A stretch of 43,666 nucleotides of DNA, taken from positions 1-43,666 of the IMG/VR virus record IMGVR_UViG_3300045988_028451; one strand, 5' to 3'. Origin of the DNA: a virus (lineage: Duplodnaviria > Heunggongvirae > Uroviricota > Caudoviricetes). The first letter of the stretch is position 1. Each line of letters begins with the position of its first letter. The translations under genes were made by a program, and so were the position numbers. Below the pieces are notes generated by a model. The model made no database searches. It was given only the letters and a program-made list of their open reading frames with translations, and had not been told where the DNA came from. Below, one piece after another: positions 3,252 through 43,666 of the stretch.

Positions 3252-3386
3252 ACATCATAGCCCCGATTCCAGCATTGCAAAAACGTATCAAGGAACTTGA
3301 AGAAGAGGTTCTACGACTACGGCAGCAAAGAGACGCAGCTAATGCGCAACTGGCGTTTGTTCTGGAGAAGCTATCAGAAGAGTAGA
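3249..3386 (+). CDS. small coiled-coil protein (45 aa)
   Basis: ATG overlapping upstream stop; heptad-like KELEEEVLRLRQQRD; ends just before a terminator hairpin. Confidence 0.35.
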
Positions 3387-3390
3387 GAAA

Positions 3391-3419
3391 AGGCCCCGTT
3401 TGGGGCCTTGTTTATTTAA
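3391..3419. terminator. bidirectional rho-independent terminator between convergent operons
   Basis: GGCCCC-GTTT-GGGGCC hairpin followed by TTGTTTATTT; T-rich on the opposite strand too. Confidence 0.7.
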
Positions 3420-5752
3420 CTGTTTGTCAGGGTAGCCACTAATGTCTCAAGCGCTATAATCCTTTTCTCTAACTGAGCTGCTTTACGTCGCTGTAACGCA
3501 GCCTCTAATATCAATACCTCATCATAACGAATACCATACCGCTCCCCTGCCGCCGTAGCTTTTGTTAATACTTCCCCAGATTCCTCATCAATAATTTCCG
3601 GAGACGCTTCCCACTTATCGTAGCACAGGAAACCGTACTTAGCCGCGTCCAACCCGTGCCGGGTAAACGCCTCAATTGCTCGTTGGGCTACTACTCCAAA
3701 GTGCCACCTAGCTGCATCCTCCCCCTTCTCTGCAACCCTATCCAGGTACTTATATTGAACTAAATTAACTTCAGCCCAAGCGTCTAATATAGCGTCAGTT
3801 AATTCCAGGGGTAGTGTCTTGGTTCTCTCGTCAGACGTAACCGTAAACGCTGTTTGAGTGAATCCGCCGGACAAAGCGCGACTTGCCGACCCGATAGCGA
3901 CGGTGTTTGCCCTGGATGGTGTAATAGCCGTCGGGGCTATTTGAATATACGCCGATGCGTCAGAGGCTAAGCGTAAATTACCCCCAACCAGAGCAATAGT
4001 TCGATAAGTACCATTAGATGTGAGTAATTTTATCTGAGAGGTCGTACCTCCACCAATAGCCAAAGATGTAGCCCCATCGGAAATTAGTCTGAATTTATCA
4101 GCTGTCACAAAAGGCAATGCAGAAGTATTTATATACTTAGTGAACCACTCAAACCTACCGGACATGGACCCTATGTATTGTCCTATAGCGGGGGCGTGTA
4201 CCACGTTACTGGTGGTAGTACCATCAATGCTAGAGACCCCGGTTATAGTAGATAGTGAACTAAGAAGACTGTTCTTGGGTCCAGGGTGCTTTACTTCCAC
4301 AAAGTTACGGGTAGTCCCTGTCTCTAGTGTAACAACCCCGGAAGCACTATACATAGGGAAAACCGATGCGTAGTTATTACTAGCTCTGTCTAAAAACCTA
4401 ATAGAAGTCGCGGTTTGCGTTTGCCCTAAACTATTAGTTCCGCTGCACCCAACCATTAGAATATTATCAGCGGCATTATAGTTGCCTTGTAATGTAACGC
4501 CGTGTGCTTGCGTGGCCTCGGAGGAGGAGTAATCAGCTACAACATTTGTCACCAGATTACCTGAACCCTTGCCGGCGGCCACAGCGGCATACTTAGCGTT
4601 ATTAGCAACAACATTACTGATAATATTACTGCTAGGGGCATTGGTCGTCTCGGTGCCATTATAAACAACGTGCTGACAGCTTTGCCCAATGACGCCACTA
4701 ACAACATTACATTTAGCATCTGTTTTCAACTCAACCGCCCCGAATTGGGGGTAGTTTCGGGCGATAACATCGTTGATTATAGTATTACTTGCGGACTCAA
4801 ACAGCACGCACCCCGCTTTTTTATTTGTAGCATACCCGGAGTAGTCGCCCCGTATGCCGCTTACAATGTATCCAGACGGACCCCCATCACTAGGGTATGC
4901 TATTAAACTAAATCCAGTTCCCTTTGCATTTTTAAAATCAATACCTTTAATAGTAACGTCCCGCCCACCGGCGAAGGAAACCTGCTGACCCTGTGTGGAG
5001 TCCGTTGCCTTATTTCCTACAATACTCAGGGTGCTAAGTAGCCCTCCTGCAGGTTTATCAAAGATTAAGTGGTTTCCAGAATCGTTTGATTGTTTTAAAA
5101 CCCCACCCCCTGTTCCGAATAGAGAGCATGTCGGGTGGGAGAGTAGCGACGTACTATACTCCCCTTGCGGTACAAGCACCCCGTTACTAGCTGTAAGCGC
5201 TCGGTTAAGGGCGTTTGTGTAATCAGGGTCAGTACCTAAATAGAAGTCCAGAACGGAAACTACTTCTCTATTTTTATCGTGTTGCGTCCTGCCGACAGCG
5301 TCGGTAAATGGTTGTCGGACGCCGACCATGGCATCACCTAATGTCGCATTGTCTGTGCTGGATAAATCATTGCGCAAATCCGGGTCAGTCTGCGGCTTCC
5401 AGTTAGCGTTACCAACCGGGTTAAACGATGCGGGGACAACAACCGGCAGAGTCCCGGTATACGAGTACCACGTCTTGCTTACAGGGTCATACACCACTTT
5501 GTCGCGGTCATTAGCGGTTAACGTACCACCAGTGGAAAAGTCCCATGACACCAGAGAAAAACCAGCGTCACGCAACACGGCTGGTAACGTCTTTTGGGTC
5601 TGCCCTGTAACGGCATTTGTCGCGTAATCAATATCGGCGCCACCTGCAACACCGCCGGATTTGCCGGTGATAACCTCGGCTTCGAAAATCTGGTGTTTCT
5701 TGGCGGTCTGTAAATCCGCCAGGCTTAAAACGTCACCGCATCCGCTTGACAT
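3416..5752 (-). CDS. tailspike / tail fibre with beta-helix repeats and C-terminal intramolecular chaperone-like domain
   Basis: 778 aa, last tail gene; Gly/Asn/Thr/Ser-rich repeats typical of parallel beta-helix; C-terminal SDERTK segment resembles Ser-Lys autoproteolytic chaperone domains; AAGAGGA RBS. Confidence 0.75.
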   Translation of the reverse strand: MSSGCGDVLSLADLQTAKKHQIFEAEVITGKSGGVAGGADIDYATNAVTGQTQKTLPAVLRDAGFSLVSWDFSTGGTLTANDRDKVVYDPVSKTWYSYTGTLPVVVPASFNPVGNANWKPQTDPDLRNDLSSTDNATLGDAMVGVRQPFTDAVGRTQHDKNREVVSVLDFYLGTDPDYTNALNRALTASNGVLVPQGEYSTSLLSHPTCSLFGTGGGVLKQSNDSGNHLIFDKPAGGLLSTLSIVGNKATDSTQGQQVSFAGGRDVTIKGIDFKNAKGTGFSLIAYPSDGGPSGYIVSGIRGDYSGYATNKKAGCVLFESASNTIINDVIARNYPQFGAVELKTDAKCNVVSGVIGQSCQHVVYNGTETTNAPSSNIISNVVANNAKYAAVAAGKGSGNLVTNVVADYSSSEATQAHGVTLQGNYNAADNILMVGCSGTNSLGQTQTATSIRFLDRASNNYASVFPMYSASGVVTLETGTTRNFVEVKHPGPKNSLLSSLSTITGVSSIDGTTTSNVVHAPAIGQYIGSMSGRFEWFTKYINTSALPFVTADKFRLISDGATSLAIGGGTTSQIKLLTSNGTYRTIALVGGNLRLASDASAYIQIAPTAITPSRANTVAIGSASRALSGGFTQTAFTVTSDERTKTLPLELTDAILDAWAEVNLVQYKYLDRVAEKGEDAARWHFGVVAQRAIEAFTRHGLDAAKYGFLCYDKWEASPEIIDEESGEVLTKATAAGERYGIRYDEVLILEAALQRRKAAQLEKRIIALETLVATLTNS

Positions 5753-5764
5753 ATAGAGTCCTCT

Positions 5765-8311
5765 TTAATTAAAACCATTGCTGAATCCGTCGGAGAAACC
5801 GCTACCGTATGGAGCGACGCCGTCGTATTTATAGAATCCGTCGTCATAGTTGTAGCCTGTAATCTTGACCGTGCGGTCGTCGCCCGGGTCGATTGAAGAA
5901 ACAACTATCTTCTGTGCATTATGCCTTGCTTCGTTGCCGAATGAAAACTCAGTTTTTAGTGCGCTATTCCCCGTGTATATTGCTTCCTCCGGCGCGGAGA
6001 GCATAATCACTTCGCGGTCGTGGTTTCCTTTGATAACAGAAATACTCTGCACGGAGCCATCGCGCTTCTTGAGGATGATGGAGTGGTCATCGCCGGGGGT
6101 AAACGTAACCGGCTGTGACAGTGTCAGCGTAAGACCATTAACGGCAACAACATAGCCATCCTGCGGCGCGATACGCGAGCCTTTAACGACACTGATTACG
6201 CCGCCCGGTGTAGCGAGTGCCCCCTCTTCGGTAGCTTCGAACTCTACGACAACTTTACTTAACGCATTGCGCTGATAGCGACGCCACGCCAGCCAGTACG
6301 CCTGCTGATAGTTGCGCACGCCTTTCGATTCGTATTCCTCAGTGTTTGCACCGAGTTCTTCCGGGATATAAATAGTTTCCTGTACGTTTGTATCCGGGTC
6401 GATGTACGAGAACGACAGGCTATCGTAGGTAGTAGAATCGTTGAATGTGCGCGTCCATTTCTCTGTACCGGTAGTTTTACTGCGGTGGGTGAACACCATT
6501 TCAGGCCCTGCAACCGGACGGTCGAAACGCAGCATAATGTCTGCACCTTTACGGTACGCAGTACAAAACACGGCTTCGGCTATAGTCTGAACGATGTCCT
6601 GCATCGTGGTGTCGTAGTCGTCGAACGTGTAGCAGAATTGTCCCGCTAATTCGCTGCCAAAATAGGATTCAATCTCTTCCTGCACGGCAAGTAACTTGTC
6701 CATGTTTGCGGTTGTCAGTTCTAAGTTACCTACCGCCGGGTCGCGGGCCAGTCGAATTAGTGATTGCACCGCCTGCGTATTAGGTGTCATTACCGTATCG
6801 AATACCCCATTTCCGAGGTATTTGTAACACATCTCAGTCGCAATCATGCGCAGTTCAGGGTTGTCAATACTAGTGGCCCGCGGTGTCTGTTTACGGGCGC
6901 AATGTACTGTTGTCCGGTTGCCGTAGTGCGGGGTTGTGTCCAGAGACTGCCCGTACAGGTTGATGAATGTTATCTCATCGCTTACGGTACCGTCGTAGTC
7001 CTTATCAAAATTCGTTATACGACGCATACGGGCGCGGAAACGCGATGCAGTAGGCAATTGCCCGTAGATAGACGTGCCAACGTAATCCGTGCTATTACCG
7101 GTAACGGTGCCTTGTACGGTGTGGATATCACCAATCGGGTTACGCTGAGAATCGATCATCTGGTACTGGAGTTCTACGGTTACATTGGCTCGGCTATAAC
7201 CACCGTCGTATTTGTAGAGGCCGTTCTGCCCGGAAACGTTAGCAAGCACCCGGTCAACTTCTCCGCGCACCATGTAATACCAGTCGGTCAGGGATACGTC
7301 GTAGGTGTCTCTCGGACCAATGAAAGTATCAGAACGCTCTGTTAAGGTATACGTCTGCCCACTGGTTAACGCGTCCCAATTAGAAGCACCATTCACCGCC
7401 AGTCTTACTTCGAAGTCATCGACATATAAAACCTCAAACGAGCCGTTAAGGTTAGTGACGCCTGCAACGTCAAAGTTGCTCAGCACCGCGACATCACCGA
7501 CGCTAAGAAACTCAGAAAAAGCGGAGTCACCCGACGGGTCATAGATGTAGCCGGTGTTTGAAATACGTTTCGCGGTGCCATCGGCGCTTGGGTTAGCCCC
7601 GATGTCGTTTGGCGCTTTCAGTACAATACCGTCAACGTCGTCGTTGGAGTATGTCACATAGAGTTTCTGGTCAATGACGTCCCCGATTTGTAGCTGCGGA
7701 GATGTGGTGTTGTTCGGGGAGGTATATGGCGCATACACGGCAACAGAGGAGCCTGTGATGTCACTTATCAGGGTATCGCCCTCTGTGACCCCATCAGCCT
7801 CAATATGTAGATGCCCCCGCCCGGCGTCATAGTACGAGTATTCTAGTAAATTCCCGATATTGTCGAACGCCTTATACGTCTGCATCAGGTCATTAGGGAT
7901 TGTCTGCACAGTCCCGCAGATGTCATAGGAGCGCTCGTAAGGACGCGGCTTGTTGGAGCGGTCAGTAAGGCTGTTATTAGCGGATTTTGCTTGGTTATTT
8001 GTCGCTGTTACCGCCAGATTCGGTTTCTTAGTTAGTAAAACCGTAGCCGCGACGACGACCAACGCAACAAGCGCACCTACTACAAGCGCACCCCCACCAG
8101 CTCCTTCTACTATGTGATACACCGCGTCTTCGTCTTTAAGCGCTTCGAAGTCGTCCGTTACGTCTGTATCATCACCAATTTCGCCGAGGTAGACGCGCAC
8201 AGGCACGCCGTCAGGAATACGGTTAACGACAAACTCCATCGGCATCCCGACGTGTTTTGTGCGGTCGAAAACACCGTTAGCATTTCGCGTGTAGTGCAGG
8301 ATTATCGCCAA
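5765..8311 (-). CDS. large tail tip protein (host-specificity J-like), with N-terminal hydrophobic segment
   Basis: 848 aa ORF downstream of K-like gene in the tail module; GGALVVGALVALVVVAATVLL hydrophobic stretch; TTG start with GGAG RBS. Confidence 0.5.
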   Translation of the reverse strand: MAIILHYTRNANGVFDRTKHVGMPMEFVVNRIPDGVPVRVYLGEIGDDTDVTDDFEALKDEDAVYHIVEGAGGGALVVGALVALVVVAATVLLTKKPNLAVTATNNQAKSANNSLTDRSNKPRPYERSYDICGTVQTIPNDLMQTYKAFDNIGNLLEYSYYDAGRGHLHIEADGVTEGDTLISDITGSSVAVYAPYTSPNNTTSPQLQIGDVIDQKLYVTYSNDDVDGIVLKAPNDIGANPSADGTAKRISNTGYIYDPSGDSAFSEFLSVGDVAVLSNFDVAGVTNLNGSFEVLYVDDFEVRLAVNGASNWDALTSGQTYTLTERSDTFIGPRDTYDVSLTDWYYMVRGEVDRVLANVSGQNGLYKYDGGYSRANVTVELQYQMIDSQRNPIGDIHTVQGTVTGNSTDYVGTSIYGQLPTASRFRARMRRITNFDKDYDGTVSDEITFINLYGQSLDTTPHYGNRTTVHCARKQTPRATSIDNPELRMIATEMCYKYLGNGVFDTVMTPNTQAVQSLIRLARDPAVGNLELTTANMDKLLAVQEEIESYFGSELAGQFCYTFDDYDTTMQDIVQTIAEAVFCTAYRKGADIMLRFDRPVAGPEMVFTHRSKTTGTEKWTRTFNDSTTYDSLSFSYIDPDTNVQETIYIPEELGANTEEYESKGVRNYQQAYWLAWRRYQRNALSKVVVEFEATEEGALATPGGVISVVKGSRIAPQDGYVVAVNGLTLTLSQPVTFTPGDDHSIILKKRDGSVQSISVIKGNHDREVIMLSAPEEAIYTGNSALKTEFSFGNEARHNAQKIVVSSIDPGDDRTVKITGYNYDDGFYKYDGVAPYGSGFSDGFSNGFN

Positions 8312-12897: not shown

Positions 12898-12929
12898 TTG
12901 CGCACCCCAACATAATAGGATACTATTCA
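12898..12929 (+). promoter_or_regulatory. sigma70-like promoter (TTGCGC-N17-TACTAT) with embedded palindromic operator AATAGGATACTATT
   Basis: -35 at 12898-12903, -10 at 12921-12926, GGAG RBS and ATG at 12968 downstream; same element recurs six more times. Confidence 0.5.
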
Positions 12930-14779: not shown

Positions 14780-15942
14780 GCGTAGGTGATACGCTGGATA
14801 ACAATAGACGACTGGTACTGGTTGCCTGTGGACTGTCCTTCTATGCTCTGAGTGATTGACTCAGGCCCGCCAATCTCTGGCGTAACTGCGGTCAACTCGG
14901 CACGTTTCAAACTGAAAGACATAGCCCCGTTCACCCCCGCCAGAATAGAGTTAATCTCTACCTGCTGTTCGTTGATAAACTTCTGAATCATAGCCATGTC
15001 GTACAGCTTGCCGGAGATGGAGAAGGTGTTAGCCGCGCGGCTACGCTCCACAAACGCCACATTAGTATTGCCGAGTTCGAACTGTGCTGACGCGCTGTTA
15101 TCGTTGGTAATGGTCAGACTATCGCAACGCAACGGCGTGGAACCGTCGAACACAGAAACGTCAACCGAAGAGAACGGCTCATCAGTGAAAGTCACCTTAG
15201 AGAAATCAGAACCAGACGGCCGCGTGGCGAGAATCTCCTGACTGCGACCGATGAACGGGAAGCTGCCAGTTACCATAGCGTTAACGGCCTGCTCAATAGT
15301 GAAGCCAGAAACTTCCACGCCTTTGGTCAGCGTGTACGCGTCAGCCCCACCACACTGGCCTTTGTACCATGTGAGAATAGAGAACGTCTTACACTGGCTA
15401 CCGGTTTCCAGCTTATCGCCAGTTTTAGCCGCAGTAGTGGCGGTCTCGGTGGTCAGCGTATGTTGGATACCAGCACCGGTGACAACAGTCGCACTTACCT
15501 CGGTTACGATAAACGGTTTGGCGTTATCACCTGTTAAGTCGGTAAACGCAATCAGGTCGCCCACTTCAACGCCGTCGGTAATAAAGCTGCCATCAGCACG
15601 GGTGAACGTCTTTCCCGCCGGGGCGACGGTAATAGACAGCCCGGACAGAGAAACACCGGATTGCCACGTAGAGCCTAAGGCACCAGCCAACCAGTCGTCC
15701 TGACTTTTCGAACTAAGCTCGATGGCGTATTCTCCACTAACCTGTTTGTTACCGGTGCGGATGGACGTAGTTTCACGACTGCCATCCAGTTCGTTGGAGG
15801 TCAGTGTGTCACGGGTAATGGCAGGAACGCCACCCGTGTTACGCAACGGCGACCAGACCGGGTTATCAGGTGTTACGCCCGGGGTCACTTCCGCCACATA
15901 GAATTGCGCTGTATTCGCGCCCTTAAAAGGAGTTGTAGCCAT
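14776..15942 (-). CDS. major tail protein (putative)
   Basis: 388 aa Thr/Ser/Gly-rich protein at the position expected for the tail tube gene. Confidence 0.45.
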   Translation of the reverse strand: MATTPFKGANTAQFYVAEVTPGVTPDNPVWSPLRNTGGVPAITRDTLTSNELDGSRETTSIRTGNKQVSGEYAIELSSKSQDDWLAGALGSTWQSGVSLSGLSITVAPAGKTFTRADGSFITDGVEVGDLIAFTDLTGDNAKPFIVTEVSATVVTGAGIQHTLTTETATTAAKTGDKLETGSQCKTFSILTWYKGQCGGADAYTLTKGVEVSGFTIEQAVNAMVTGSFPFIGRSQEILATRPSGSDFSKVTFTDEPFSSVDVSVFDGSTPLRCDSLTITNDNSASAQFELGNTNVAFVERSRAANTFSISGKLYDMAMIQKFINEQQVEINSILAGVNGAMSFSLKRAELTAVTPEIGGPESITQSIEGQSTGNQYQSSIVIQRITYA

Positions 15943-21987: not shown

Positions 21988-22019
21988 TTGCGTGCACCAA
22001 CATAATAGGGTACTATTCA
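21988..22019 (+). promoter_or_regulatory. sigma70-like promoter (TTGCGT-N17-TACTAT) with embedded operator AATAGGGTACTATT
   Basis: -35 at 21988-21993, -10 at 22011-22016; GGAG RBS and ATG at 22044 downstream. Confidence 0.5.
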
Positions 22020-23749: not shown

Positions 23750-24826
23750 TTATACCGACCTAAGATATTCAGCAACCCTGTTATCTAACGCCGCCATCTC
23801 CTTCAAGGTTAAAGGTCTACCAAAAGCGTCGACGGATATTACCCGGAATTCCTCTGGGGATATCCCACTATTCCTGAATATAGCACCGCGGGTAGGTCCG
23901 AGTGCTTCATCCACGAACCATGCCGGTTGCTGTTTCAGGAACTCGTAATAGGTGGTGTCCGCGCTTACCTGCATACCGCCGTCCGCACCCTTAGCCGCGC
24001 GTTTTGCGCCTTTATCGAGGAAGTCGAACTCCGAACTGATTACAGGCGCGGTGGTGCTTCGGCAATTAGGATGCGCTGGTGGCATCGGCCCTTTACCAAT
24101 TTCCCACGTCATTCCGTCTCTGGCCCTGCAAATCGTGCTGGTGCGGCTGTCCAGCGTTGACACCCACTCGTATTTCTCGATGATGTCGTCGTTCCGGCGG
24201 TACGTCTCGTTACGGGCTTCATTGGATACGTGAGACAGCGCGGTGCGGATTACGGTAGCCGCGTTACGTTCAGAGATGTCAGCCAGTCCGCCAGCGCCTA
24301 CGACATTCTTAACAATCTGTCGTGTTGTCTGACCTTGTACGAACCCCATCTTAACGCCGGTTACGAGACGTGCTACTTCGGTTTCACCCCATCCCGACAT
24401 CAGCTTAGTGAAATCAACAGGCTTGTCGCTTAATGATAAGGGTTGAAACTCGGCAGCGGACCACACCTGTTCGGCGGTAGGCGTAACAAATTCCGCATCT
24501 ACGTTGGTGGTCAGTGTCTTTACATTCCACTCGGCCTCATACGCCGCCAGTTCCATAAGGTCTTCTGTCAGCTTTGTTTGCCAATCGCCGGTAAGTCCGG
24601 TTAGCGCTTCTTCAAGGTCGAGTAACAGTTTATTCAGTCGCGCAGTGCTCCGCCCGTCGTCACCGAATAACAGCACCCGCCGTTTTATTTCGTCCCGCAT
24701 CTCCTTAATGAACGGCGCGAGGTCTTTCACCTCACCGGATGCAGTGCGTTGCAGCCATATCTGGTGGCTGATTAGAGATGTAAGTAAGCTCATAGATAAA
24801 CCCTGTGACGCTAAAGTTAATAGCAT
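23750..24826 (-). CDS. head morphogenesis protein (Mu F-like / SPP1 gp7-like)
   Basis: Conserved HPNCRST-type motif (PPAHPNCRSTTAPV) and position directly downstream of portal gene. Confidence 0.75.
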   Translation of the reverse strand: MLLTLASQGLSMSLLTSLISHQIWLQRTASGEVKDLAPFIKEMRDEIKRRVLLFGDDGRSTARLNKLLLDLEEALTGLTGDWQTKLTEDLMELAAYEAEWNVKTLTTNVDAEFVTPTAEQVWSAAEFQPLSLSDKPVDFTKLMSGWGETEVARLVTGVKMGFVQGQTTRQIVKNVVGAGGLADISERNAATVIRTALSHVSNEARNETYRRNDDIIEKYEWVSTLDSRTSTICRARDGMTWEIGKGPMPPAHPNCRSTTAPVISSEFDFLDKGAKRAAKGADGGMQVSADTTYYEFLKQQPAWFVDEALGPTRGAIFRNSGISPEEFRVISVDAFGRPLTLKEMAALDNRVAEYLRSV

Positions 24827-24834
24827 ACTATAAG

Positions 24835-24854
24835 AAAGCCCCTTTCGGGGCTAT
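24835..24854 (-). terminator. hairpin between portal and MuF-like genes (possible partial terminator or RNA stability element)
   Basis: AGCCCC-TTTC-GGGGCT hairpin, T-rich downstream on minus strand. Confidence 0.35.
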
Positions 24855-30129: not shown

Positions 30130-30158
30130 AATATAATAGGGTCTAGGATAATAGTCAA
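30130..30158 (-). promoter_or_regulatory. sigma70-like promoter (TTGACT-N17-TATATT) for the small-gene operon
   Basis: On minus strand -35 TTGACT (30158 to 30153) and -10 TATATT (30135 to 30130), 17-nt spacer; gene start at 30095 downstream. Confidence 0.4.
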
Positions 30159-30180
30159 CTAGTCATTACGGAAAATAGAT

Positions 30181-33732: not shown

Positions 33733-33766
33733 AATGAATGGTATCCTATTCTCCCCCAGTGTGCAA
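33733..33766 (-). promoter_or_regulatory. sigma70-like promoter (TTGCAC-N17-TACCAT) with degenerate operator copy
   Basis: Minus-strand -35 at 33766 to 33761, -10 at 33743 to 33738; operator AATGGTATCCTATT. Confidence 0.4.
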
Positions 33767-34755: not shown

Positions 34756-34788
34756 GTGAATAGTATCCTATTATATTGGGGTGTGCAA
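34756..34788 (-). promoter_or_regulatory. sigma70-like promoter (TTGCAC-N17-TACTAT) with embedded operator AATAGTATCCTATT
   Basis: Minus-strand -35 at 34788 to 34783, -10 at 34765 to 34760; block near-identical to the 12898-12929 element in opposite orientation. Confidence 0.5.
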
Positions 34789-35036
34789 GAGAATAGTTAC
34801 GTTGCCGTTGTGATTCTTCGGGGAAGGTTGTGCCTTTATTCTTATTACTTGGTAACTAAAGGGCAGGCCTTAAGCCTGCCCACTAATCGTTACATTTTTA
34901 CGGTTGCGAATCTACGGCACATTAAGAAAATCAGATACTTAAGAGATATGCCGCCGATGAGAATATAGCTTGCCCAGGGCAACCGGAGATACTTAGGAAG
35001 GAAAGTTACGATAATTCTAATGTTCAGTAAGCCTGT

Positions 35037-35068
35037 GTTTAACCCTTTGCTTGACGCACGGGTTAAAC
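35037..35068. promoter_or_regulatory. perfect 9-bp inverted repeat GTTTAACCC-N14-GGGTTAAAC enclosing a TTGACG hexamer
   Basis: Arms at 35037-35045 and 35060-35068, read directly; upstream of HTH gene at 35220. Confidence 0.4.
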
Positions 35069-35219
35069 ATTCTTACAAGGTGAACAAGAATAAAAGTAAC
35101 TAAGATATAGAAGCACCTTAAACGAAGATTTCCATAATGTCAATAGGTGCGATTATGTTTGATTTCCCATTATTCGCAATGTATACTTGGTTTCGTTGAC
35201 TGATAATGAGGGTTTGAGA

Positions 35220-35390
35220 ATGACACAGAATGAGGTAGCTGAGCGTATTGGGGTTACTCGCCGCACGCTTAATAACTGGTTAAAGAGTGGGAAGTTCCCG
35301 GATTGTTGTATCCGCATTATGGGCCGCCGCCAGCCCGGTACGTTTGACCCAGAGAAAGTGGAAGCGTGGATTAAGGAGAACGTTAAATGA
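35220..35390 (+). CDS. small HTH DNA-binding protein (AlpA/excisionase-like fold, putative regulator)
   Basis: MTQNEVAERIGVTRRTLNNWLKSGKFP is a helix-turn-helix signature; GAGGG RBS (ORF track lists upstream start at 35187). Confidence 0.5.
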   Translation: MTQNEVAERIGVTRRTLNNWLKSGKFPDCCIRIMGRRQPGTFDPEKVEAWIKENVK

Positions 35391-35678: not shown

Positions 35679-37919
35679 ATGTCCGATGTAATTTTATCCT
35701 ACTCGTGGTCCCGTCGCAACGCGCGGGCGGAGAAAAAGGATATAAACGTCAGAACCACACATACGGCAACACTGGACGACCTGAAAGAGTTAATCCAGCC
35801 GCTTGATGTCGTTCGCGATGGGATTAACCCTAAGACCGCGCCCGGGTATATCACCGCTGCGTGCGACTCTACACACAGCACCGTAAAAGACCCGGAAACC
35901 GGTGACTTTAAGCAAGCGCGTAAAGGCTTCTTCTATCGCTGTGACGCGTCTGTAAGCAAATCGTCGCTGGCGTACCTGGACTTCGACAGCGCAACACCGG
36001 AAGAGTATCAGGAAGCTGTGCGCCTGGTTAAGCGCAGCCGCCTGGCTATGTGCCTCTACACCACGGCATCCCATACCGATGAGTCACCACGCTTTCGCGT
36101 CGTCATGCCGCTGGGCCGCCCGGTTGAAGGTGGAGACATCATCCGTGTTCGCCATGGATTGCTGGAACACTTCTTCAAAGGCATGGGCGCGGACCGCAGC
36201 GGTTTCACTCTGTCGCAGCCTATGTACCTGCCGCCGGTTGGCTCTACCGTTATCTGGTCGCGCCGAAACGACCTGATTGACCCGGAAGAGTTACTGGAAG
36301 GCATCCCGGATTACGAGGTGAGCAGCGCATCTGACTACCAGATACCAGAAGAACTGCGTACCGCGTTTACTGATGCGTTTGAGGCGCTGGCGTTTGAGTA
36401 CGGCGGTGTTATGACGCCCCGCGGCCTTAAGATGCCAGCTACGCCGGAACATGCAGAAAATTACAGCGACCCTACGCCGCGCCCGGACGACTTCCTGCTG
36501 TGCTTCCCGCGCGAGGGCTACGAAGCGCCGAACGTAACCATGATCCACGACACTGACATTACGGCAACCGAAGGCATGTCGCCGAAAGAGGTGTGGAAAT
36601 ATGCGTGTGATGCGACTGGTCTCCCGTTCAGTGAAGTCGCTGAGGCTATCGGCTGGGGCGCACGTGAATCTGTTTCATGCAGCCTCGACGACCTGGAAGA
36701 CGACGAGGACCCCGAGGAGGACGAGCTACCGGAACCGGTAAAGGCTGATTTCGTCGTAGAAGGGTATATGCCGTCAGATTGCATCTGGGATATTGTCGGG
36801 GAATCCGGCACGTACAAATCATTCTATACGCTGGGGATGATGTACCTGAGCGCCGCCGGATACCGGTTCGCCGGGGCGGACACCCAGCGTTGCCATCACT
36901 TCTATATCGACGGTGAGGGTGGCGCGGCTACACGCACACGTATTGACGCACTAGCGGCTAAATATGGTGAGGAAGGTAAAGATTATGTACATGTCATCGA
37001 CATGGGTGAAGTCGGAAAACTTAAAAACCTGATTAAGTTGATGCGTGAAACTGCGGGTGACGAACCCATCGGCATGGTTGCCTTCGACACCCTAAACCAG
37101 ACCCTGGCTTTGACGATTGATAAGTTCGACGAGAACAGTTCATCGACGGCAATCGGCATGGGTAAAGTCATTGCCATCCTGAAAGAAGTACGTGACGTGA
37201 CTAAAGCCGCAGTAGGCGTTGTCCATCATACGCCGAAGGGTGGGAAGAAAGCCCGCGGCAGTGGTGCGCTGTATGCTGGCGTCGACGTGGAACTGACAAT
37301 TGAACGCGCGACCGACCGTCAGATAAACGTATACCACTCTAAATTTAAGCACGGGCCCCAACAGAAAACGGTTGGCATGGTGCTGGAGTCGGTACAGTTC
37401 CGCGAAGCGCCACCGCCGAAAGAGTACCGTGCTGTTGAGTTCCTGGGTAGCACAGAGGAATACGGCACAATCGTAAACCTCGACCTGCCAGAACCACATA
37501 AGGCACTTGTGCTGATGCCGTGGGGCTTCGAGCCGTTCAAAACTGACGAGGAGAAAGAGCGGGAAGAAGGGCTGACGAAAGAAGGTAAAGAAAACGTAAA
37601 GAATGCTGTAAAACGCGGGAAGGATGAAGGGCGTAAGGAATCAATACTCGCCGCGCTGGAAGACCTGCAGCAGGCCGACGACACCGGACGCGGTTTTACC
37701 CAACGGCAGATAGTGGCGAACTCTGGCGACCACGCTATCACCAACCACCATCTCGAGAAGATGCTGAAAGACGGTGAGTTGATGCTTGGATGTGATGTTA
37801 ACGGTGAAGTTATACCGGGCACATACAGGATACCGGAAAAGATGGGCGACAGATTAAGACCGAAGACAATATACGAACCGAATGAAATGCTGGTGGTGAC
37901 AGAGGAGGATTTGGAGTAG
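35679..37919 (+). CDS. DNA primase/helicase (N-terminal primase-like domain, C-terminal RecA-like NTPase)
   Basis: 746 aa; Walker A GESGTYKS and RecA/DnaB-like NTPase core in the C-terminal half; acidic linker. Confidence 0.65.
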   Translation: MSDVILSYSWSRRNARAEKKDINVRTTHTATLDDLKELIQPLDVVRDGINPKTAPGYITAACDSTHSTVKDPETGDFKQARKGFFYRCDASVSKSSLAYLDFDSATPEEYQEAVRLVKRSRLAMCLYTTASHTDESPRFRVVMPLGRPVEGGDIIRVRHGLLEHFFKGMGADRSGFTLSQPMYLPPVGSTVIWSRRNDLIDPEELLEGIPDYEVSSASDYQIPEELRTAFTDAFEALAFEYGGVMTPRGLKMPATPEHAENYSDPTPRPDDFLLCFPREGYEAPNVTMIHDTDITATEGMSPKEVWKYACDATGLPFSEVAEAIGWGARESVSCSLDDLEDDEDPEEDELPEPVKADFVVEGYMPSDCIWDIVGESGTYKSFYTLGMMYLSAAGYRFAGADTQRCHHFYIDGEGGAATRTRIDALAAKYGEEGKDYVHVIDMGEVGKLKNLIKLMRETAGDEPIGMVAFDTLNQTLALTIDKFDENSSSTAIGMGKVIAILKEVRDVTKAAVGVVHHTPKGGKKARGSGALYAGVDVELTIERATDRQINVYHSKFKHGPQQKTVGMVLESVQFREAPPPKEYRAVEFLGSTEEYGTIVNLDLPEPHKALVLMPWGFEPFKTDEEKEREEGLTKEGKENVKNAVKRGKDEGRKESILAALEDLQQADDTGRGFTQRQIVANSGDHAITNHHLEKMLKDGELMLGCDVNGEVIPGTYRIPEKMGDRLRPKTIYEPNEMLVVTEEDLE

Positions 37920-37928
37920 GTAAAAAGA

Positions 37929-37947
37929 AAGGGGCATTAAGCCCCTT
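37929..37947. terminator. bidirectional terminator hairpin between convergent primase and HTH genes
   Basis: GGGGC-ATTAA-GCCCC; T-rich tract (TTTCTTTTTT) on minus strand. Confidence 0.5.
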
Positions 37948-38152
37948 CACCTAGCGCCAGCCACTTGGCGTCTACCTCCAGCACTTCCGCCAGTTTAAAC
38001 AGCGTTGCCGGGCGGACGTCCTGGGTTACCCCAAGTGCCAGCTGGTTAATTGCGCCCTGGGAAACCCCGGTCAGCACCGCCAGACGGCGCTGGGAGATGC
38101 CGAGTTCTTTACGGCGTTTTTCTACACGGATGCCTAGTTCAGATGGTTGCAT
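37937..38152 (-). CDS. XRE-family HTH regulator (Cro/CI-like)
   Basis: 71 aa with LGISQRRLAVLTGVSQGAINQLALG helix-turn-helix; divergent from operator-containing early promoters. Confidence 0.7.
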   Translation of the reverse strand: MQPSELGIRVEKRRKELGISQRRLAVLTGVSQGAINQLALGVTQDVRPATLFKLAEVLEVDAKWLALGEGA

Positions 38153-38172
38153 GACAATTACTCCTTAGTTAG

Positions 38173-38245
38173 TTGATATGTGAATAGTATCATATTAATT
38201 ATTTTAGAAAAGCCCATTGACATGTGAATAGTTCACTATTATAGT
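38173..38245 (+). promoter_or_regulatory. early promoter region with two operator copies (TTGATA... AATAGTATCATATT; TTGACA-N17-TATAGT with AATAGTTCACTATT)
   Basis: -35 TTGACA 38217-38222, -10 TATAGT 38240-38245, operator in spacer; second operator-like copy at 38183-38196; GAGAGGAGAG RBS and ATG at 38277. Confidence 0.5.
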
Positions 38246-38276
38246 TAGCCCATACCAAACGAGAGGAGAGAAACAA

Positions 38277-38777
38277 ATGTTAGAGAAATTCTTAGTATTA
38301 CTGGAACGTTTCGTAGTTGCACATGAACTGATTGCTGCGAATAGTGCGAAACAGTTCGCGCCAACTACTGCCAAAGAGGCTGCCGCAGTAGCCGCTCATA
38401 AAATTGAGCAGTTCTCTGAAAGTATTAAAGAAGAAACAAAAGAAATCCCGGTTGAAGGTGAAGACATCGTCGACACTAAACCGGCAGAAGAAGAGAAGCC
38501 AAAACGTAAGCCGCGTAAAGCTAAAGTAGAGGAACCGACGCCAGAGCCGGAGGAAGAGAAAGAAGAAGTCGATTACCAGTCTCTTCGTGACCATATTCAG
38601 GCTATCGACGATGCAATTAACGAAGGTCCGAGCGATGCCGCGTGCGACGATTCTGATGAACTGCTGGAAGAGTTCACCGGTAAGAAGATGAAGATTGCCG
38701 CGATTAAAGACGAAGACCTGGCTGAGTACCTGGAGCGCCTGACAGCAATCAAGAACAAGTATTTCGAAGAAGAATAA
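38277..38777 (+). CDS. highly acidic early protein
   Basis: 166 aa with long Glu/Asp-rich segments (EPTPEPEEEKEEVDY, DDSDELLEEF); first gene of the operator-controlled operon. Confidence 0.5.
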   Translation: MLEKFLVLLERFVVAHELIAANSAKQFAPTTAKEAAAVAAHKIEQFSESIKEETKEIPVEGEDIVDTKPAEEEKPKRKPRKAKVEEPTPEPEEEKEEVDYQSLRDHIQAIDDAINEGPSDAACDDSDELLEEFTGKKMKIAAIKDEDLAEYLERLTAIKNKYFEEE

Positions 38778-39222: not shown

Positions 39223-39426
39223 GTGAATAAATCTTCTGGTAGGCTTGAGGATTACCCGAAAACATTAATATACAAAAGTGAAAAGCATCACATGGCCGCT
39301 GTTGACGCAAGACGTCAGTTCGCAGGAATGTTGCAACAGTTAAGCGACTTACATCGCGATGATTCTTTCACCCCCTCAGAAGAACAGCTACAGGCATTAA
39401 ACTTGTATTTGGAGAGTTTACGATGA
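39223..39426 (+). CDS. hypothetical protein
   Basis: ORF; ATGA overlap with the following nuclease gene. Confidence 0.4.
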   Translation: MNKSSGRLEDYPKTLIYKSEKHHMAAVDARRQFAGMLQQLSDLHRDDSFTPSEEQLQALNLYLESLR

Positions 39427-40664
39427 TTCTAAAAGAACGCGGCGGCAATAACGATGTTCACGCCTTACTTTCGCCGTCAGGTGCTAAAAAATGGCTGTCA
39501 TGCGCTGCATCACTGGCCTGTGAAAAAGATATTCCTAACACGTCGGGTAAATCCGCCGTTACGGGGACAGCGTGCCACACCATAGCTGAAGTCCATCTCA
39601 ACGCCTATATCCGCGGCACTGCGTTGCCGTTAGAGCGTGAAGTTGGCGCTTACGTGCTGGATGAGGGTAAAGGCCAGATTAAGGCGCTAATCAGCCCGAT
39701 GAAAGGCGCGGTACTGATTACGGCGGACATGATTGAGCAGGTGCGAAAGTACACCGACTACTGCAAAGCGATTATAGACGTAGCGACTTATGCCAAGCTC
39801 GAGATGCGGGTAAATCTTACTGAGGTGTTGCATCCTGGTTACGAAGGCGTTGAGACGTTCGGAACCGCTGACCTTGTTGCCGTTCAGGAACTGGCTAACA
39901 CCGACGAGCACATGCTGATTATTGGCGACCTGAAAACCGGGCGGCATCGTGTAGAAGCGAAAGAAAACAAGCAGCTTATGCTCTACGCTCTAGGTGTTTA
40001 TCGCCGACTCAAGAGACGTTATAACATAACAACCGTTCGTCTGGTCATCTTTCAGCCATACGCTGGCGGCGCGTCGGAGTGGGACATCTCGGTTGAAGGT
40101 CTGGAACTGTTCGCTAAGTTTGCGCAGAAACGGGCGCTGTTAGCTCTTGATGCGTATTTCCGTGGTAAAAAGAACCTGAAAGCGTCGGACTTCAGGCCGT
40201 CTGTCGACGGTTGCCAATGGTGCCGTTTCTCAGAGCAGTGCGCCGCGCGTACAAAAACCGTCAACGCGGTGCTGGCGGAAGAACTGGAGGACGACTTTGC
40301 GCTGGAACTTACGCCGGAGGAACTCGTAGCTGAGTACGAGAAGTTGCCGTTGTTGCGCCAGCACATCGACAAGGTTGAGAAAGCTATGGCTGCCGCGTTG
40401 CATTCCGGTAAGAAAGTTCCTGGGTACAAGCTGGTTGAAGGTAAGATGGGCAATCGTGCGTGGAAAGACGCGGAGAAAGTAACAGAACTCTACGGCGACA
40501 AGCTGACTAAAGAAGTGCTCATGACGCCGACCGAAGCGGTTAAAGTTGTGCCGGAAGAAGAACTGAAAGACTTCATCACACGTAAACCAGGTGCCCCATG
40601 CATCACAACGGCAGACGACAAACGGCCTGAGTGGAATCAGGTTAGTGAAGAAGATTTGGAATAA
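39423..40664 (+). CDS. PD-(D/E)XK nuclease with C-terminal Cys cluster (Cas4/RecB-like exonuclease)
   Basis: GTADLVAV ... IGDLKTG nuclease core and C-terminal CQWCRFSEQC cluster. Confidence 0.7.
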   Translation: MILKERGGNNDVHALLSPSGAKKWLSCAASLACEKDIPNTSGKSAVTGTACHTIAEVHLNAYIRGTALPLEREVGAYVLDEGKGQIKALISPMKGAVLITADMIEQVRKYTDYCKAIIDVATYAKLEMRVNLTEVLHPGYEGVETFGTADLVAVQELANTDEHMLIIGDLKTGRHRVEAKENKQLMLYALGVYRRLKRRYNITTVRLVIFQPYAGGASEWDISVEGLELFAKFAQKRALLALDAYFRGKKNLKASDFRPSVDGCQWCRFSEQCAARTKTVNAVLAEELEDDFALELTPEELVAEYEKLPLLRQHIDKVEKAMAAALHSGKKVPGYKLVEGKMGNRAWKDAEKVTELYGDKLTKEVLMTPTEAVKVVPEEELKDFITRKPGAPCITTADDKRPEWNQVSEEDLE

Positions 40665-40668
40665 AGTG

Positions 40669-40697
40669 TTGACACCTGAATAGTTGGCTATTATAGT
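40669..40697 (+). promoter_or_regulatory. sigma70-like promoter (TTGACA-N17-TATAGT) with operator AATAGTTGGCTATT in the spacer
   Basis: -35 40669-40674, -10 40692-40697; GAGGA RBS and ATG at 40754 downstream. Confidence 0.55.
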
Positions 40698-41439: not shown

Positions 41440-43666
41440 ATGAGTTACCTGTTCTTAGACTTTGAAACATTCTCCGAAGCCGATTTAAAGAAAGTCGGCT
41501 CCTACGCTTACGCCGAGCATCCAACTACCGAAGTGCTTATCTGTACATACGCTTTTGACGACGAGCCTGTGCAGGTGTGGGATTGCACCGACGGCAGTGA
41601 CATGCCGGGCGATTTGCACCGCGCGTTACGTCGTCTGGTTAAGCCTAACAGTCGCATTAAGATGGTGTGGCACAACGGCTCAATGTTCGACAGGCTCATA
41701 ATGAAGCACTGCTGGGGCTTTGATATTCCGGTACGCAACACCATTGATACGATGATTTGGGCGTTTCGTCATGCATTGCCGGGTTCACTTGACTCATTGT
41801 GCGAAGTGCTGGGCGTGTCTGCTGACAATGCGAAGGATAAGCGTGGCAAGGCGCTGATTCAGCGTTTCTCTAAACCGACACCGAAGAACTACAAAATCAG
41901 ACGCTACACCGCCGAGACGCACCCTGATGAATGGGCGTTGTTCATCAAGTACGCCGTGAGCGATATTACCGCGATGCGTGAGGTATTCCATAAGCTGCCA
42001 CGTTGGGGTAACTCGGAGTTCGAGGACCGTGTACTGGAACTGGACCAGTTAATCAACGACCGCGGGTTTAAGGTTGACGTGGCACTGGCAGAAGCCGCGA
42101 TTGAAGCCGTGGAGAAACACAAAGCGCAGTTACAGGAAGAGGCCCAACGCAAATACGGCGGCTCGCTTACTGGTAAAGACTTTCTGCCGATTCTGCGCGA
42201 ACTTGCCCCTGCGCACCGAATCCACAACGTGCAGAAGTCAACGCTGAATGACCTGCTGGCCGACGATGATTTACCGGACGACGCACGCACGATTATCGAA
42301 ATGCGCCTCGGGGCCGCGTCCACGGCGTCCACGAAATATAACCCGCTGCTGCGGGGCCGCTCTTCGGACGACCGCCGTCGCGGTTGCTTGCAGTACGGTG
42401 GGGCAAAACGTACTCTGCGATGGGCAGGTAAAGGCTTCCAGCCGCAGAACCTGGCACGCGGTTACTATCATGATGATGAGCTGGATAAAGGCATTTCAGC
42501 GTTACTTAAGGGCCGCGCCCATCGCCGTTTTGATGTAGCCAAACTAACGGCATCTACTGTGCGTAGCTGCATAATACCGGAAGCCGGGCATAAGTTTGTC
42601 GTCGCCGATTACTCTAACGTTGAAGGCCGCGGGCTTGCGTGGCTGGCAGGTGAAGAAACCGCGCTCGATACGTTCCGCGCCGGACTGGATATTTACTGTG
42701 TAACCGCAGGCAAGATGTTCGGTATGGACCCTGATGACATTAAGAAAGAACGTAAAGACTTGCGCCAGATTGGTAAAGCGTGCCTTCACCGTCATACCCA
42801 GGTTTTGACCGATGGCGGATTTAAGGATATTATGGCGGTTACATCAACAGATAAAGTATGGAGCGGTGAAAAATGGGTGAATACAAAAGGCGCGCACCTT
42901 ATGGGGTGGAAACCGGTAATAAATGTGGACGGGGTGCTAATGACCGAAGATCACAAAATCTTGGCGCATTCCTGGAAGCAGGCAAAGCAACTCGCTTCAA
43001 ACAGATATATGATGGGCCTAGCCCTGGAGAGAGGTATGGACGCTTGGTTATCCTGCGCGAGTTGCCAAAACGACAAGGCCAAAGACAACTACTCGTCCAA
43101 TGTGATTGCGGAGAGATGCCGGGGCGGGTCTATTATGACAACGTCAGAGCGGGTAAAACCACTCAATGCAACCGCTGCGCCCTTGAAGCAACAAAAAAAT
43201 ATCGTAAACAGTATTTCTGCTACGAAGACGCAATGCCGGATGATGCACACAGAACGCGATTACTCAACCGGCTGTCAGCGGCGATCACGCGAACAACAAG
43301 CCCCAGGGATAAGGGTTATAAAAACTATGGGGCAAGAGGCATCACGGTATTCGACCAGTGGAGGACTGATAAAAGGTCTTTTCTTAGATATGTTCAAACT
43401 CTGGAAGGCTGGGATGACCCGAACCTCGAAATGGATAGAATCGACACAGACGGTAACTACGAACCTGGAAACATTCGGTTTGTCAGCCGTTCTGAAAACT
43501 GCCGAAACAGACGGCAAATACCCGAGCTTCAACGAAAGTATGATGCAGCCGTTGCCCGCATTGCTGAACTTGAGCGGGAAATTAACCTACTGCGAGCCGG
43601 TGTACGACCTGATTGATGTGGAAGACGGCAACCGTTTTCTTATAGCCTCAGACTCTGGCTTTCTTG
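41440..43666 (+). CDS. DNA polymerase I (family A) with 3-prime to 5-prime exonuclease domain, N-terminal part plus intein; continues at 1..927
   Basis: Exo motif LFLDFETFS; Pol A motif A ADYSNVEGR; frame stays open to the window end and continues across the junction (1033 codons including intein). Confidence 0.85.
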   Translation, partial: MSYLFLDFETFSEADLKKVGSYAYAEHPTTEVLICTYAFDDEPVQVWDCTDGSDMPGDLHRALRRLVKPNSRIKMVWHNGSMFDRLIMKHCWGFDIPVRNTIDTMIWAFRHALPGSLDSLCEVLGVSADNAKDKRGKALIQRFSKPTPKNYKIRRYTAETHPDEWALFIKYAVSDITAMREVFHKLPRWGNSEFEDRVLELDQLINDRGFKVDVALAEAAIEAVEKHKAQLQEEAQRKYGGSLTGKDFLPILRELAPAHRIHNVQKSTLNDLLADDDLPDDARTIIEMRLGAASTASTKYNPLLRGRSSDDRRRGCLQYGGAKRTLRWAGKGFQPQNLARGYYHDDELDKGISALLKGRAHRRFDVAKLTASTVRSCIIPEAGHKFVVADYSNVEGRGLAWLAGEETALDTFRAGLDIYCVTAGKMFGMDPDDIKKERKDLRQIGKACLHRHTQVLTDGGFKDIMAVTSTDKVWSGEKWVNTKGAHLMGWKPVINVDGVLMTEDHKILAHSWKQAKQLASNRYMMGLALERGMDAWLSCASCQNDKAKDNYSSNVIAERCRGGSIMTTSERVKPLNATAAPLKQQKNIVNSISATKTQCRMMHTERDYSTGCQRRSREQQAPGIRVIKTMGQEASRYSTSGGLIKGLFLDMFKLWKAGMTRTSKWIESTQTVTTNLETFGLSAVLKTAETDGKYPSFNESMMQPLPALLNLSGKLTYCEPVYDLIDVEDGNRFLIASDSGFL
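42781..43666 (+). mobile_element. intein inserted in polymerase motif B (O-helix), N-terminal and central part (ends at base 66 after the junction)
   Basis: N-extein ...RQIGKA; insert starts CLHRHTQVLTDGG (block A-like), has TEDH (block B-like) and ends ...VAHN + Cys; 299 codons in total. Confidence 0.75.
42873..43616 (+). CDS. HNH endonuclease encoded in an alternate frame inside the intein
   Basis: In-frame stop at 42867-42869, GGAG RBS then ATG at 42873; product has YGRLVILRE, CDCG...CNRC and YKNYGARGITVFDQW...DRIDTDGNYEPGNIRFVSRSENCRNRR, typical of phage HNH endonucleases. Confidence 0.7.
   Translation: MGEYKRRAPYGVETGNKCGRGANDRRSQNLGAFLEAGKATRFKQIYDGPSPGERYGRLVILRELPKRQGQRQLLVQCDCGEMPGRVYYDNVRAGKTTQCNRCALEATKKYRKQYFCYEDAMPDDAHRTRLLNRLSAAITRTTSPRDKGYKNYGARGITVFDQWRTDKRSFLRYVQTLEGWDDPNLEMDRIDTDGNYEPGNIRFVSRSENCRNRRQIPELQRKYDAAVARIAELEREINLLRAGVRPD

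Follow-up and report, generated by a model that had tools for sequence, protein, structure and literature searches.

A recurrent 14-bp dyad on core promoters of a strictly lytic Kagunavirus genome, with a 434 Cro-like protein as its probable binder

What might a small Cro-like gene control in a phage without lysogeny, and which protein reads the palindromes that lie beside it? These questions are raised by the IMG/VR record IMGVR_UViG_3300045988_028451, whose 43,666 nucleotides (the whole stretch analyzed, hereafter the window) make up a complete Kagunavirus genome (Guernseyvirinae, 43.6 kb). On its minus strand, positions 37937–38152 (ATG at 38152–38150) encode a 71-amino acid (aa) XRE-type helix-turn-helix (HTH) protein, referred to here as HTH71, which diverges from a plus-strand gene with its ATG at 38277 across a 124-bp intergenic region. 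A sequence-only reading had described this arrangement, which agrees with the coordinates and with the Pfam HTH_3 and 434 Cro matches given below, and had proposed a repressor/operator switch built on two palindrome copies. A 434 Cro-type protein and a conservation pattern of the dimer-operator kind uphold the core of that proposal, whereas the local two-operator picture proved too narrow, as the palindrome recurs on promoter-like sites around the genome. In our assessment, HTH71 probably binds these dyads as a dimer, lowers the activity of the dyad-bearing promoters and regulates its own gene, which would most likely amount to a shut-off of transcription across the phage genome and not to a local switch.

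The intergenic region contains one near-consensus promoter on the plus strand and a weaker one on the minus strand. The former, P_early (38217–38245), combines TTGACA (38217–38222), a 17-nt spacer and TATAGT (38240–38245), matches the consensus at 11 of 12 positions with a predicted start at about 38252, and is kept in all relatives with a spacer of 17 or 18 nt. Its spacer harbors site 2 (38227–38240, AATAGTTCACTATT), a perfect dyad AATAG-TTCA-CTATT which fills spacer positions 5–17 plus the first base of the -10 element (about -25 to -12), much as the sequence-only reading had placed it, and which represents a putative strong operator. Site 1 (38183–38196, AATAGTATCATATT), which had been counted as a second full copy, is an imperfect dyad, AATAG-TATC-ATATT, with nine of ten half-site positions and ATATT in place of CTATT, and would be a weaker operator on the HTH71 promoter. 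Read on the minus strand (AATATGATACTATT), it aligns with the class II promoters described below and lacks their -35 element. The corresponding promoter, P_HTH (38184–38192, minus), is an extended -10, TGaTACTAT, with no recognizable -35 and a predicted start at about 38177; the G-to-T mismatch of site 1 itself generates the TG of this extended -10. In Salmonella phage SETP3 (Jerseyvirus), the equivalent position carries TTGCAC-N17-TACTAT. Judged by sequence, P_early and P_HTH both have the features of sigma-70 promoters, namely a -35/-10 pair with a 16–18-nt spacer or a TGn extended -10, and an alternative minus-strand promoter, TTCACA-N16-TAAAAT (38228–38201), was considered less likely given that its -10 is not conserved in relative L040 and in SETP3. 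The distance between the two copies, previously put at about 45 bp, is 44 bp from start to start, and the actual repeat is a 25-nt direct repeat (38173–38197 and 38217–38241) of 80% identity. With one site on the promoter of the regulator gene itself and the other on the divergent promoter, the region exhibits a classic autoregulatory layout.

Scanning of the whole window for AATAG-N4-CTATT with up to one mismatch recovered 10 copies where 1.02 were expected, a count reached in none of 100 shuffles, and exact copies numbered 6 against 0.03 expected, ranking first in a de novo enumeration of 5-Nk-5 palindromes. The dyad marks nearly all strong promoters of the genome. It overlaps core elements of at least nine promoter-like sites in three registers (spacer, -10 and -35), with centers at about -18.5, -12.5 or -33.5 relative to the start, all within the RNA polymerase footprint. 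These sites lie 30–45 nt upstream of a ribosome-binding site and start codon and serve replication, recombination, small-gene/lysis and packaging units.

Three promoter classes emerged from these registers. Class I promoters have the dyad as the filling of their spacer (TTGACr, 4 nt, AATAG-N4-CTAT, then TATAGT); the sites of this class, at 38227, 40679 and 1396, are all on the plus strand. Besides P_early, they comprise TTGACA-N17-TATAGT at 40669–40697 (dyad AATAGTTGGCTATT, 40679–40692), ahead of the genes for a single-stranded DNA-binding protein and the DNA polymerase, and TTGACG-N17-TATAGT at 1386–1414 (dyad AATAGCAAACTATT, 1396–1409), ahead of a DNA helicase gene. The only promoters of the genome matching 11 of 12 consensus positions are two class I sites, and both carry the dyad. 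Class II (TTGCrC-N17-TACTAT) holds a dyad of the form AATAGGrTACTATT on the -10 and includes the sites at 12914, 22004, 33737 and 34759, with 38183 as a degenerate member. On the plus strand, TTGCGC-N17-TACTAT at 12898–12927 (dyad AATAGGATACTATT, 12914–12927) precedes a small open reading frame (ORF) and a DNA repair exonuclease gene, with the tail chaperone operon diverging on its other side, and TTGCGT-N17-TACTAT at 21988–22017 (dyad AATAGGGTACTATT, 22004–22017) precedes a RusA-like resolvase gene. On the minus strand, TTGCAC-N17-TACCAT at 33737–33766 (one-mismatch dyad, 33737–33750) faces small genes, and TTGCAC-N17-TACTAT at 34759–34788 (perfect dyad, 34759–34772) faces small genes toward the lysis cassette. 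Class III is represented by TTGACT-N17-TATATT at 30130–30163 (minus), where a one-mismatch dyad (30150–30163; ACTAG-TTGA-CTATT on the minus strand) covers the -35 upstream of small genes and the terminase genes, an arrangement also found in SETP3 and K1G. The tenth copy (24819–24832, minus; TATAG-TATG-CTATT) directly follows a terminator hairpin (24837–24852) and includes the ATG of a head-morphogenesis gene; it could be a weak operator in the late region or a chance occurrence.

The conservation of these sites was followed through 36 IMG/VR Kagunavirus genomes (37 sequences for site 2). Within the half-sites of site 2 no position varies, while the center varies at three of its four positions (TTCA, TTCG, TTAG, CTAG, TTTG and CTCG), and the linker between the -35 of P_early and the left half-site is variable in sequence and either 4 or 5 nt long. 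The half-sites of site 1, the mismatch included, are identical in 36 of 36 relatives around a center that reads TATC, TACC or TAGC. Over seven orthologous sites, varying positions amounted to 7 of 70 in the half-sites against 16 of 28 in the centers (Fisher p = 2.7e-6; p = 3e-5 in a three-site version of the test), and fixed center bases occur only where promoter hexamers overlap, that is, at the TA of TACTAT in class II and the TCAA of TTGACT in class III. Since the class I half-sites are invariant within a spacer that RNA polymerase does not read, another reader is needed. Such a pattern is characteristic of operators that symmetric dimers bind.

The motif itself has already been published under a different label. 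In the paper on Escherichia phage fBC-Eco01, seven "phage promoters" were identified with PHIRE, with the consensus tgAATAGTa-ccTATTat-T, and were assigned to a phage RNA polymerase; dyad symmetry and the three registers go unmentioned there, as does any link to the HTH protein (PMC9825357). In the GenBank record of fBC-Eco01, the copy adjacent to the HTH gene is "phage promoter 5" and the dyad at 34759 is "phage promoter 6". The paper on the relative Golestan likewise gives seven promoter sequences identified with PHIRE (PMC7203180), and our literature search found no link between the motif and the HTH protein. These reports would suit a palindrome with no dedicated binder, that is, an intrinsic promoter feature made of back-to-back -10 elements or a phage promoter consensus and spread by duplication or recombination. 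Several sites do lie in divergent intergenic regions, and CTATTAT and TACTAT resemble -10 hexamers. In SETP3, a fully symmetric bidirectional promoter surrounds the dyad (15225–15280, dyad at 15245; TTGACG-N17-TATTAA and TTGCAT-N17-TATTAT) between a Rha/ANT-type island and the tail chaperone operon; the window equivalent, at 12914, has a weaker reverse -35, TTGGTG. Against such an origin, the dyad takes three registers relative to the -35 and -10 and hence does not belong to any single element recognized by RNA polymerase, and it is perfect in the strictly one-directional contexts of 1396 and 40679, which shows that it is not a by-product of back-to-back -10 hexamers. The left half-site of class I is invariant in a spacer unread by sigma-70 while neighboring bases vary, and no phage RNA polymerase was found among the annotated ORFs of the window. 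We regard a binder-free palindrome as very unlikely, and the published phage RNA polymerase label appears to be wrong.

Among the proteins that could read the dyad, HTH71 is the one whose gene borders two of its copies. It matches Pfam HTH_3 over residues 11–65 (47.1 bits against a cut-off of 23, E = 2.5e-12), and its top sequence match among solved structures is phage 434 Cro, also of 71 aa, aligned end to end (E = 2e-6), followed by the 434 repressor DNA-binding domain and P22 C2. An AlphaFold2 model (predicted local distance difference test score, pLDDT, of 78) shows the compact five-helix XRE fold (helices at 4–16, 20–27, 31–38, 47–56 and 62–65), with the HTH formed by helices 2 and 3. In Foldseek, its top match was again 434 Cro (2cro; 41% identity, template-modeling score 0.73–0.78), with 3cro (434 Cro), 1pra (434 repressor), C.BclI, C.AhdI, SinR and P22 c2 among the other top Protein Data Bank matches. 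The first Gln of the recognition helix aligns with Gln28 of 434 Cro, and the two proteins share this initial residue. Phage 434 operators are dyads of 14 bp in which the outer bases are conserved and the center is variable, and the element described here has the same length and the same distribution of conserved and variable bases, and likewise sits on two divergent promoters, including that of the regulator. On these grounds, the most likely target of HTH71 is the 14-bp dyad (G/T)AATAG-N4-CTATT(A). The gene is under strong purifying selection, with a median ratio of nonsynonymous to synonymous substitution rates (dN/dS) of 0.075 over 33 relatives and dS values up to about 0.3; its GenBank labels differ, including "repressor", "Cro", "DicA" and "hypothetical".

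Comparison of recognition helices with their operators pointed in the same direction. The helix GVSQGAINQLALG is identical in the Kagunavirus HTH71 variants, down to 75% overall identity, and a single G-to-S change in the HTH71 helix, to the residue that SETP3 has there, leaves the operator unchanged. An independent lineage, IMGVR_UViG_3300031112_000002 (L091, with L113), encodes an HTH71 homolog of 43% identity with the helix GMTQGGIGHIVTG. Here the class I layout reads TTGCAA-tcgtt-AATAC-cgac-GTATT-ATAGT, with both half-sites changed symmetrically, and a one-mismatch copy of the dyad lies on the -10 of the lineage's own HTH gene. AATAC-N4-GTATT is the top palindrome of the L091 segment (3 copies against 0.02 expected), all copies being on promoters, and the 22 kb examined yielded neither the gp56-like gene introduced below nor another Pfam HTH. 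A dyad that keeps its symmetry while its sequence shifts with the HTH71 lineage, where gp56-like was not found, provides the best available evidence that HTH71 binds it. The symmetric change (G to C, C to G) also speaks against an intrinsic promoter feature, in that it preserves dyad symmetry and not the similarity to a -10. Fine covariation over the more distant relatives (Cornellvirus, STP-1, VLCpiS11a and the L100/L104–106 group) was too ambiguous to be used, L091 being the only clean case. Two genomes with longer HTH proteins, L041 and L042, share the general layout with other half-sites (e.g., ATCGC-N4-GCGAT). In L042 (1250–1450), ATCGC-AAAA-GCGAT occupies the spacer of TTGCAT-N17-TATAGT at the same position as the P_early dyad, and the HTH protein is cI-like, with a long C-terminal extension that appears S24-peptidase-like by eye only, which points to a temperate phage; the layout is thus shared with a cI-type control region of the temperate-phage kind and merely illustrates a general rule.

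Several observations weigh against HTH71 as the reader, or against the generality of the scheme. Jerseyvirus genomes have the same half-sites, yet their HTH71 is 48% identical with the helix SQSLITH instead of SQGAINQ, and identical specificity is therefore not guaranteed. A second candidate, referred to as gp56-like, is a 56-aa HTH_17/excisionase-type protein encoded at 35220–35390 (plus) at the head of an operon that ends in the primase-helicase gene. It is confined to Kagunavirus and Jerseyvirus (443 records), is 85% identical between them, and is absent from Cornellvirus VSiA, STP-1 and VLCpiS11a, all of which lack the AATAG dyad; its phyletic pattern fits the dyad as well as that of HTH71 does. 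Nor does the scheme hold throughout the subfamily: three TATTA-N6-TAATA sites and a nonpalindromic element at P_early occur in Cornellvirus and STP-1, no palindrome was found at the P_early spacer position in the L100/L104–106 group, VLCpiS11a has no enriched palindrome, and Cornellvirus and two other groups have no clean palindrome in the P_early spacer. Finally, the mismatched half of site 1 retains four of five positions in Kagunavirus and three of five in SETP3, and this imperfect half-site makes autoregulation the weakest step of the model.

Published expression data add to this count. In the only Kagunavirus RNA-seq study, which offers gene-level counts, an HTH gene appears among the four earliest genes (PMC12645636). 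Its coordinates (6308–6490, 60 aa) identify it as gp56-like, not HTH71, and the study was accordingly rejected as support for an early HTH71. The HTH71 homolog (vB_Eco_K1B4_004; 3386–3601, 71 aa, 125 bp from its divergent neighbor) peaks with the bulk of the genes. The sampling was very coarse (5–120 min at a multiplicity of infection of 100; PMC12645636), and consequently the study neither supports nor refutes the HTH71 model; it does keep alive gp56-like as the binder and, as discussed below, a dual-regulator variant.

The dyad could accordingly be a genuine protein site read by something other than HTH71, be it gp56-like, another phage protein or a host factor, with HTH71 acting on targets elsewhere. 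Beyond its phyletic restriction and the differing HTH71 helices of two genera that share the dyad, gp56-like has a promoter of its own without the dyad (TTGATT-N17-TATACT, 35159–35187), and in the Kagunavirus RNA-seq data no annotated gene peaks earlier than its homolog, which would fit an early regulator of later promoters. Its presumed recognition region, however, varies in Kagunavirus (TRRT, TRQT, SPMT and STMT) while the dyads of the same genomes are unchanged, and the L091 lineage has dyad promoters of the same layout with no gp56-like or other Pfam HTH in the segment examined. Small excisionase-type HTH_17 proteins are usually direct-repeat binders, in contrast to 434 Cro-type proteins, which bind 14-bp inverted repeats. 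Host factors fared no better on direct inspection of the sequence: the spacing of the TGTGA-N5-TCAC in site 2 does not suit CRP, and neither the ARG box nor the TrpR operator fits. A binder other than HTH71 is hence judged unlikely. A loading site for an AlpA/Q-type antiterminator was also rejected. Such systems have a protein of about 150 aa or more with an RNA-exit-channel ring and a -10-like pause element downstream of the start, whereas the candidates of 71 and 56 aa are far too small and the known element is not a dyad; the AlpA of P. aeruginosa, judged by its numbering, is much larger, with eight helices and DNA contacts up to residue 142, and uses a single 6-bp element (PMC9371919). Structured RNA was set aside too, as no Rfam family occurs anywhere in the window and the early leader folds worse than shuffled sequence (z = +1.8).

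If HTH71 is the binder, the mechanism could run as follows. Two HTH71 monomers would each contact one 5-bp half-site, one helical turn apart. Host sigma-70 RNA polymerase would initiate at the dyad-bearing promoters, P_early driving the rightward early operon and the weak extended -10 P_HTH driving the leftward HTH71 gene. As HTH71 dimers accumulate, they would fill the dyads, exclude the host RNA polymerase and lower expression of the dyad-bearing units, and at higher HTH71 concentration the nine-of-ten site on P_HTH would confer negative autoregulation. Binding by HTH71, the repression and its timing are inferred, and the net result would be a Cro-type turn-down in a phage without a cI partner or lysogeny. 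A more far-reaching version, which we find doubtful, would have one HTH71 and one dyad, set on almost all sigma-70 promoters in the three registers, encode most of the transcription programme of a strictly lytic subfamily, with register and half-site quality setting the repression thresholds and ordering the shut-off; a rising repressor would then shut down the replication, accessory and packaging units, and the HTH71 gene last.

The same binder might also act as a concentration-dependent dual regulator in the manner of the C proteins of restriction–modification systems, stimulating some promoters (weak class II ones or its own -35-less promoter, for instance), repressing others and serving as a delay timer instead of a shut-off. 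C.BclI and C.AhdI rank high among the fold matches of HTH71, P_HTH has no -35 and the class II hexamers are weak (TTGCRC and TACTAT), and three registers could yield different outcomes per promoter; in the RNA-seq data, moreover, most dyad-driven genes peak after the dyad-free gp56-like gene. Activators typically sit at -41.5 or -61.5. The dyads, by contrast, lie inside the core promoter at about -12.5, -18.5 and -33.5, class I promoters are near consensus and require no activator, and a distance of 44 bp (55 bp in SETP3) separates the local pair, unlike the adjacent OL/OR pair of C-boxes. A dual regulator therefore appears quite improbable, and repression by an HTH71 dimer is the reading we carry forward.

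Set beside characterized systems, HTH71 has the expected role of 434, P22 and lambda Cro, namely the turn-down of early lytic transcription, and differs from 434 Cro in several respects. No cI partner, tripartite OR, integrase or lysogeny accompanies it; the half-site is AATAG and not the ACAA of 434; single sites are scattered over at least nine promoters instead of clustering at one switch; and the divergent partner is a replication/recombination operon. Concerning the lambdoid cI–Cro arrangement, the gene opposite HTH71 is not a cI-type repressor but encodes an acidic 166-aa phrog_3127 protein followed by replication genes, two sites (one imperfect) stand in place of three tandem operators, and an integration/lysogeny module is missing. 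The C proteins (C.AhdI, C.BclI and C.Esp1396I) are likewise small, single-domain XRE-type proteins with close folds, palindromes on their own promoters and temporal control without a lysogeny-like state. They differ in having two adjacent operators, activation followed by repression and a co-transcribed restriction endonuclease gene, while the sites here are spaced apart, lie in core promoters and extend genome-wide, and HTH71 is monocistronic, ends at a terminator and has no neighboring restriction gene. P1 C1 and mycobacteriophage L5 gp71, the latter acting on "stoperators", provide examples of one small regulator with many sites spread over the genome on or near promoters. The many cognate sites around a phage genome are common to both cases, but P1 C1 and L5 gp71 are unrelated proteins that serve as immunity repressors of temperate phages and use asymmetric sites, in contrast to the symmetric sites and the lytic phage of the present case. 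The principle of a 434 Cro-type protein acting through dyad operators on core promoters is textbook, and the value of the present case lies in annotation and engineering.

The lytic character of the phage follows from several lines of evidence. About 100 Escherichia Kagunavirus phages (including K1G, K1ind1, fBC-Eco01 and BASEL Bas70–76) are 88–95% identical to the region and Salmonella Jerseyvirus phages 80–90%. Positions 1–55 of the window repeat positions 43612–43666, which indicates a circularly closed whole-genome assembly with an assembly overlap. The large ORFs are all assigned, to DNA polymerase, helicases, primase-helicase, exonucleases, SSB, RusA, HNH endonucleases, terminase, portal, capsid, tail genes, tailspike and endolysin, and no integrase was found among the ORFs of the window, which bears out the sequence-only reading. 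The region had zero matches in 5,426 complete E. coli genomes, and on this and the missing integrase a prophage or lysogeny was rejected. Published relatives are described as devoid of lysogeny genes and strictly lytic (PMC9825357; PMC7203180). The phage is strictly lytic, and the system is consequently better understood as control of the lytic programme than as part of lysogeny, as had been suggested from the sequence.

The remaining features of the locus and of the genome can be described briefly. The HTH71 gene has the ribosome-binding site AAGGAG at 38161–38166 (minus), 8 nt ahead of the ATG, and ends at a bidirectional terminator (37928–37948), a G+C-rich hairpin with T-runs on both strands that was recovered by a terminator scan and is annotated in fBC-Eco01; it separates the gene from the primase gene (stop at 37919). 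In Cornellvirus VSiA, STP-1 and L091, the HTH71 gene lies directly upstream of the primase-helicase gene and points in the same direction, while Kagunavirus and Jerseyvirus have an inverted primase gene that stands behind the gp56-like gene; the early region has thus been rearranged in the course of the subfamily's divergence. The early operon opens on the plus strand with the 166-aa gene mentioned above (38277–38777; no Pfam domain) and continues with ORFs of 90 and 67 aa and a DUF2800 PD-(D/E)XK exonuclease gene (39423–40664). A stretch of about 430 bp (34773–35207), bounded by the leftward class II promoter on one side and the gp56-like gene on the other, holds no convincing ORF and comprises a strong hairpin (34861–34881), a perfect 10-bp inverted repeat (35036–35045 and 35060–35069), short direct repeats and an additional GAATAG half-site at about 34790; this segment might serve as an origin of replication or have some other control function.

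The DNA polymerase ORF continues unbroken over the window junction (41440–43666, then 56–927, plus; 1032 aa) and has the same length in SETP3. The K1G polymerase (726 aa) aligns solely to 41440–42783 and 55–924, the extra 306 codons or so forming an intein-like in-frame insertion that begins with CLHRHTQVLTDGG and, in SETP3, ends in ...FLVAHN/C. Within this insertion, in another frame, lies a 247-aa HNH endonuclease ORF (42873–43616, plus; PHROG E = 1e-46) preceded by TTGACC-N17-TATTAT (42805–42833). Neither frame is interrupted in the window or in SETP3, and the arrangement suggests that a homing endonuclease gene has been overprinted, out of frame, on an intein in the polymerase gene.

Phages of the Guernseyvirinae (Kagunavirus and Jerseyvirus) are common in therapy and biocontrol and have been proposed as small chassis for synthetic biology, while the transcription programme of the subfamily is understudied. 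If the HTH71 model is true, it names a regulator and about nine operators of that programme and corrects the published claim of a promoter motif for a phage RNA polymerase. It would also provide a compact set of repressible sigma-70 promoters together with a natural specificity variant (AATAC), and should the threshold version also be true, the programme would be rewirable by half-site swaps, as the natural AATAG-to-AATAC change suggests. More broadly, the Cro-type module would then serve as a genome-wide regulator in a phage without lysogeny.

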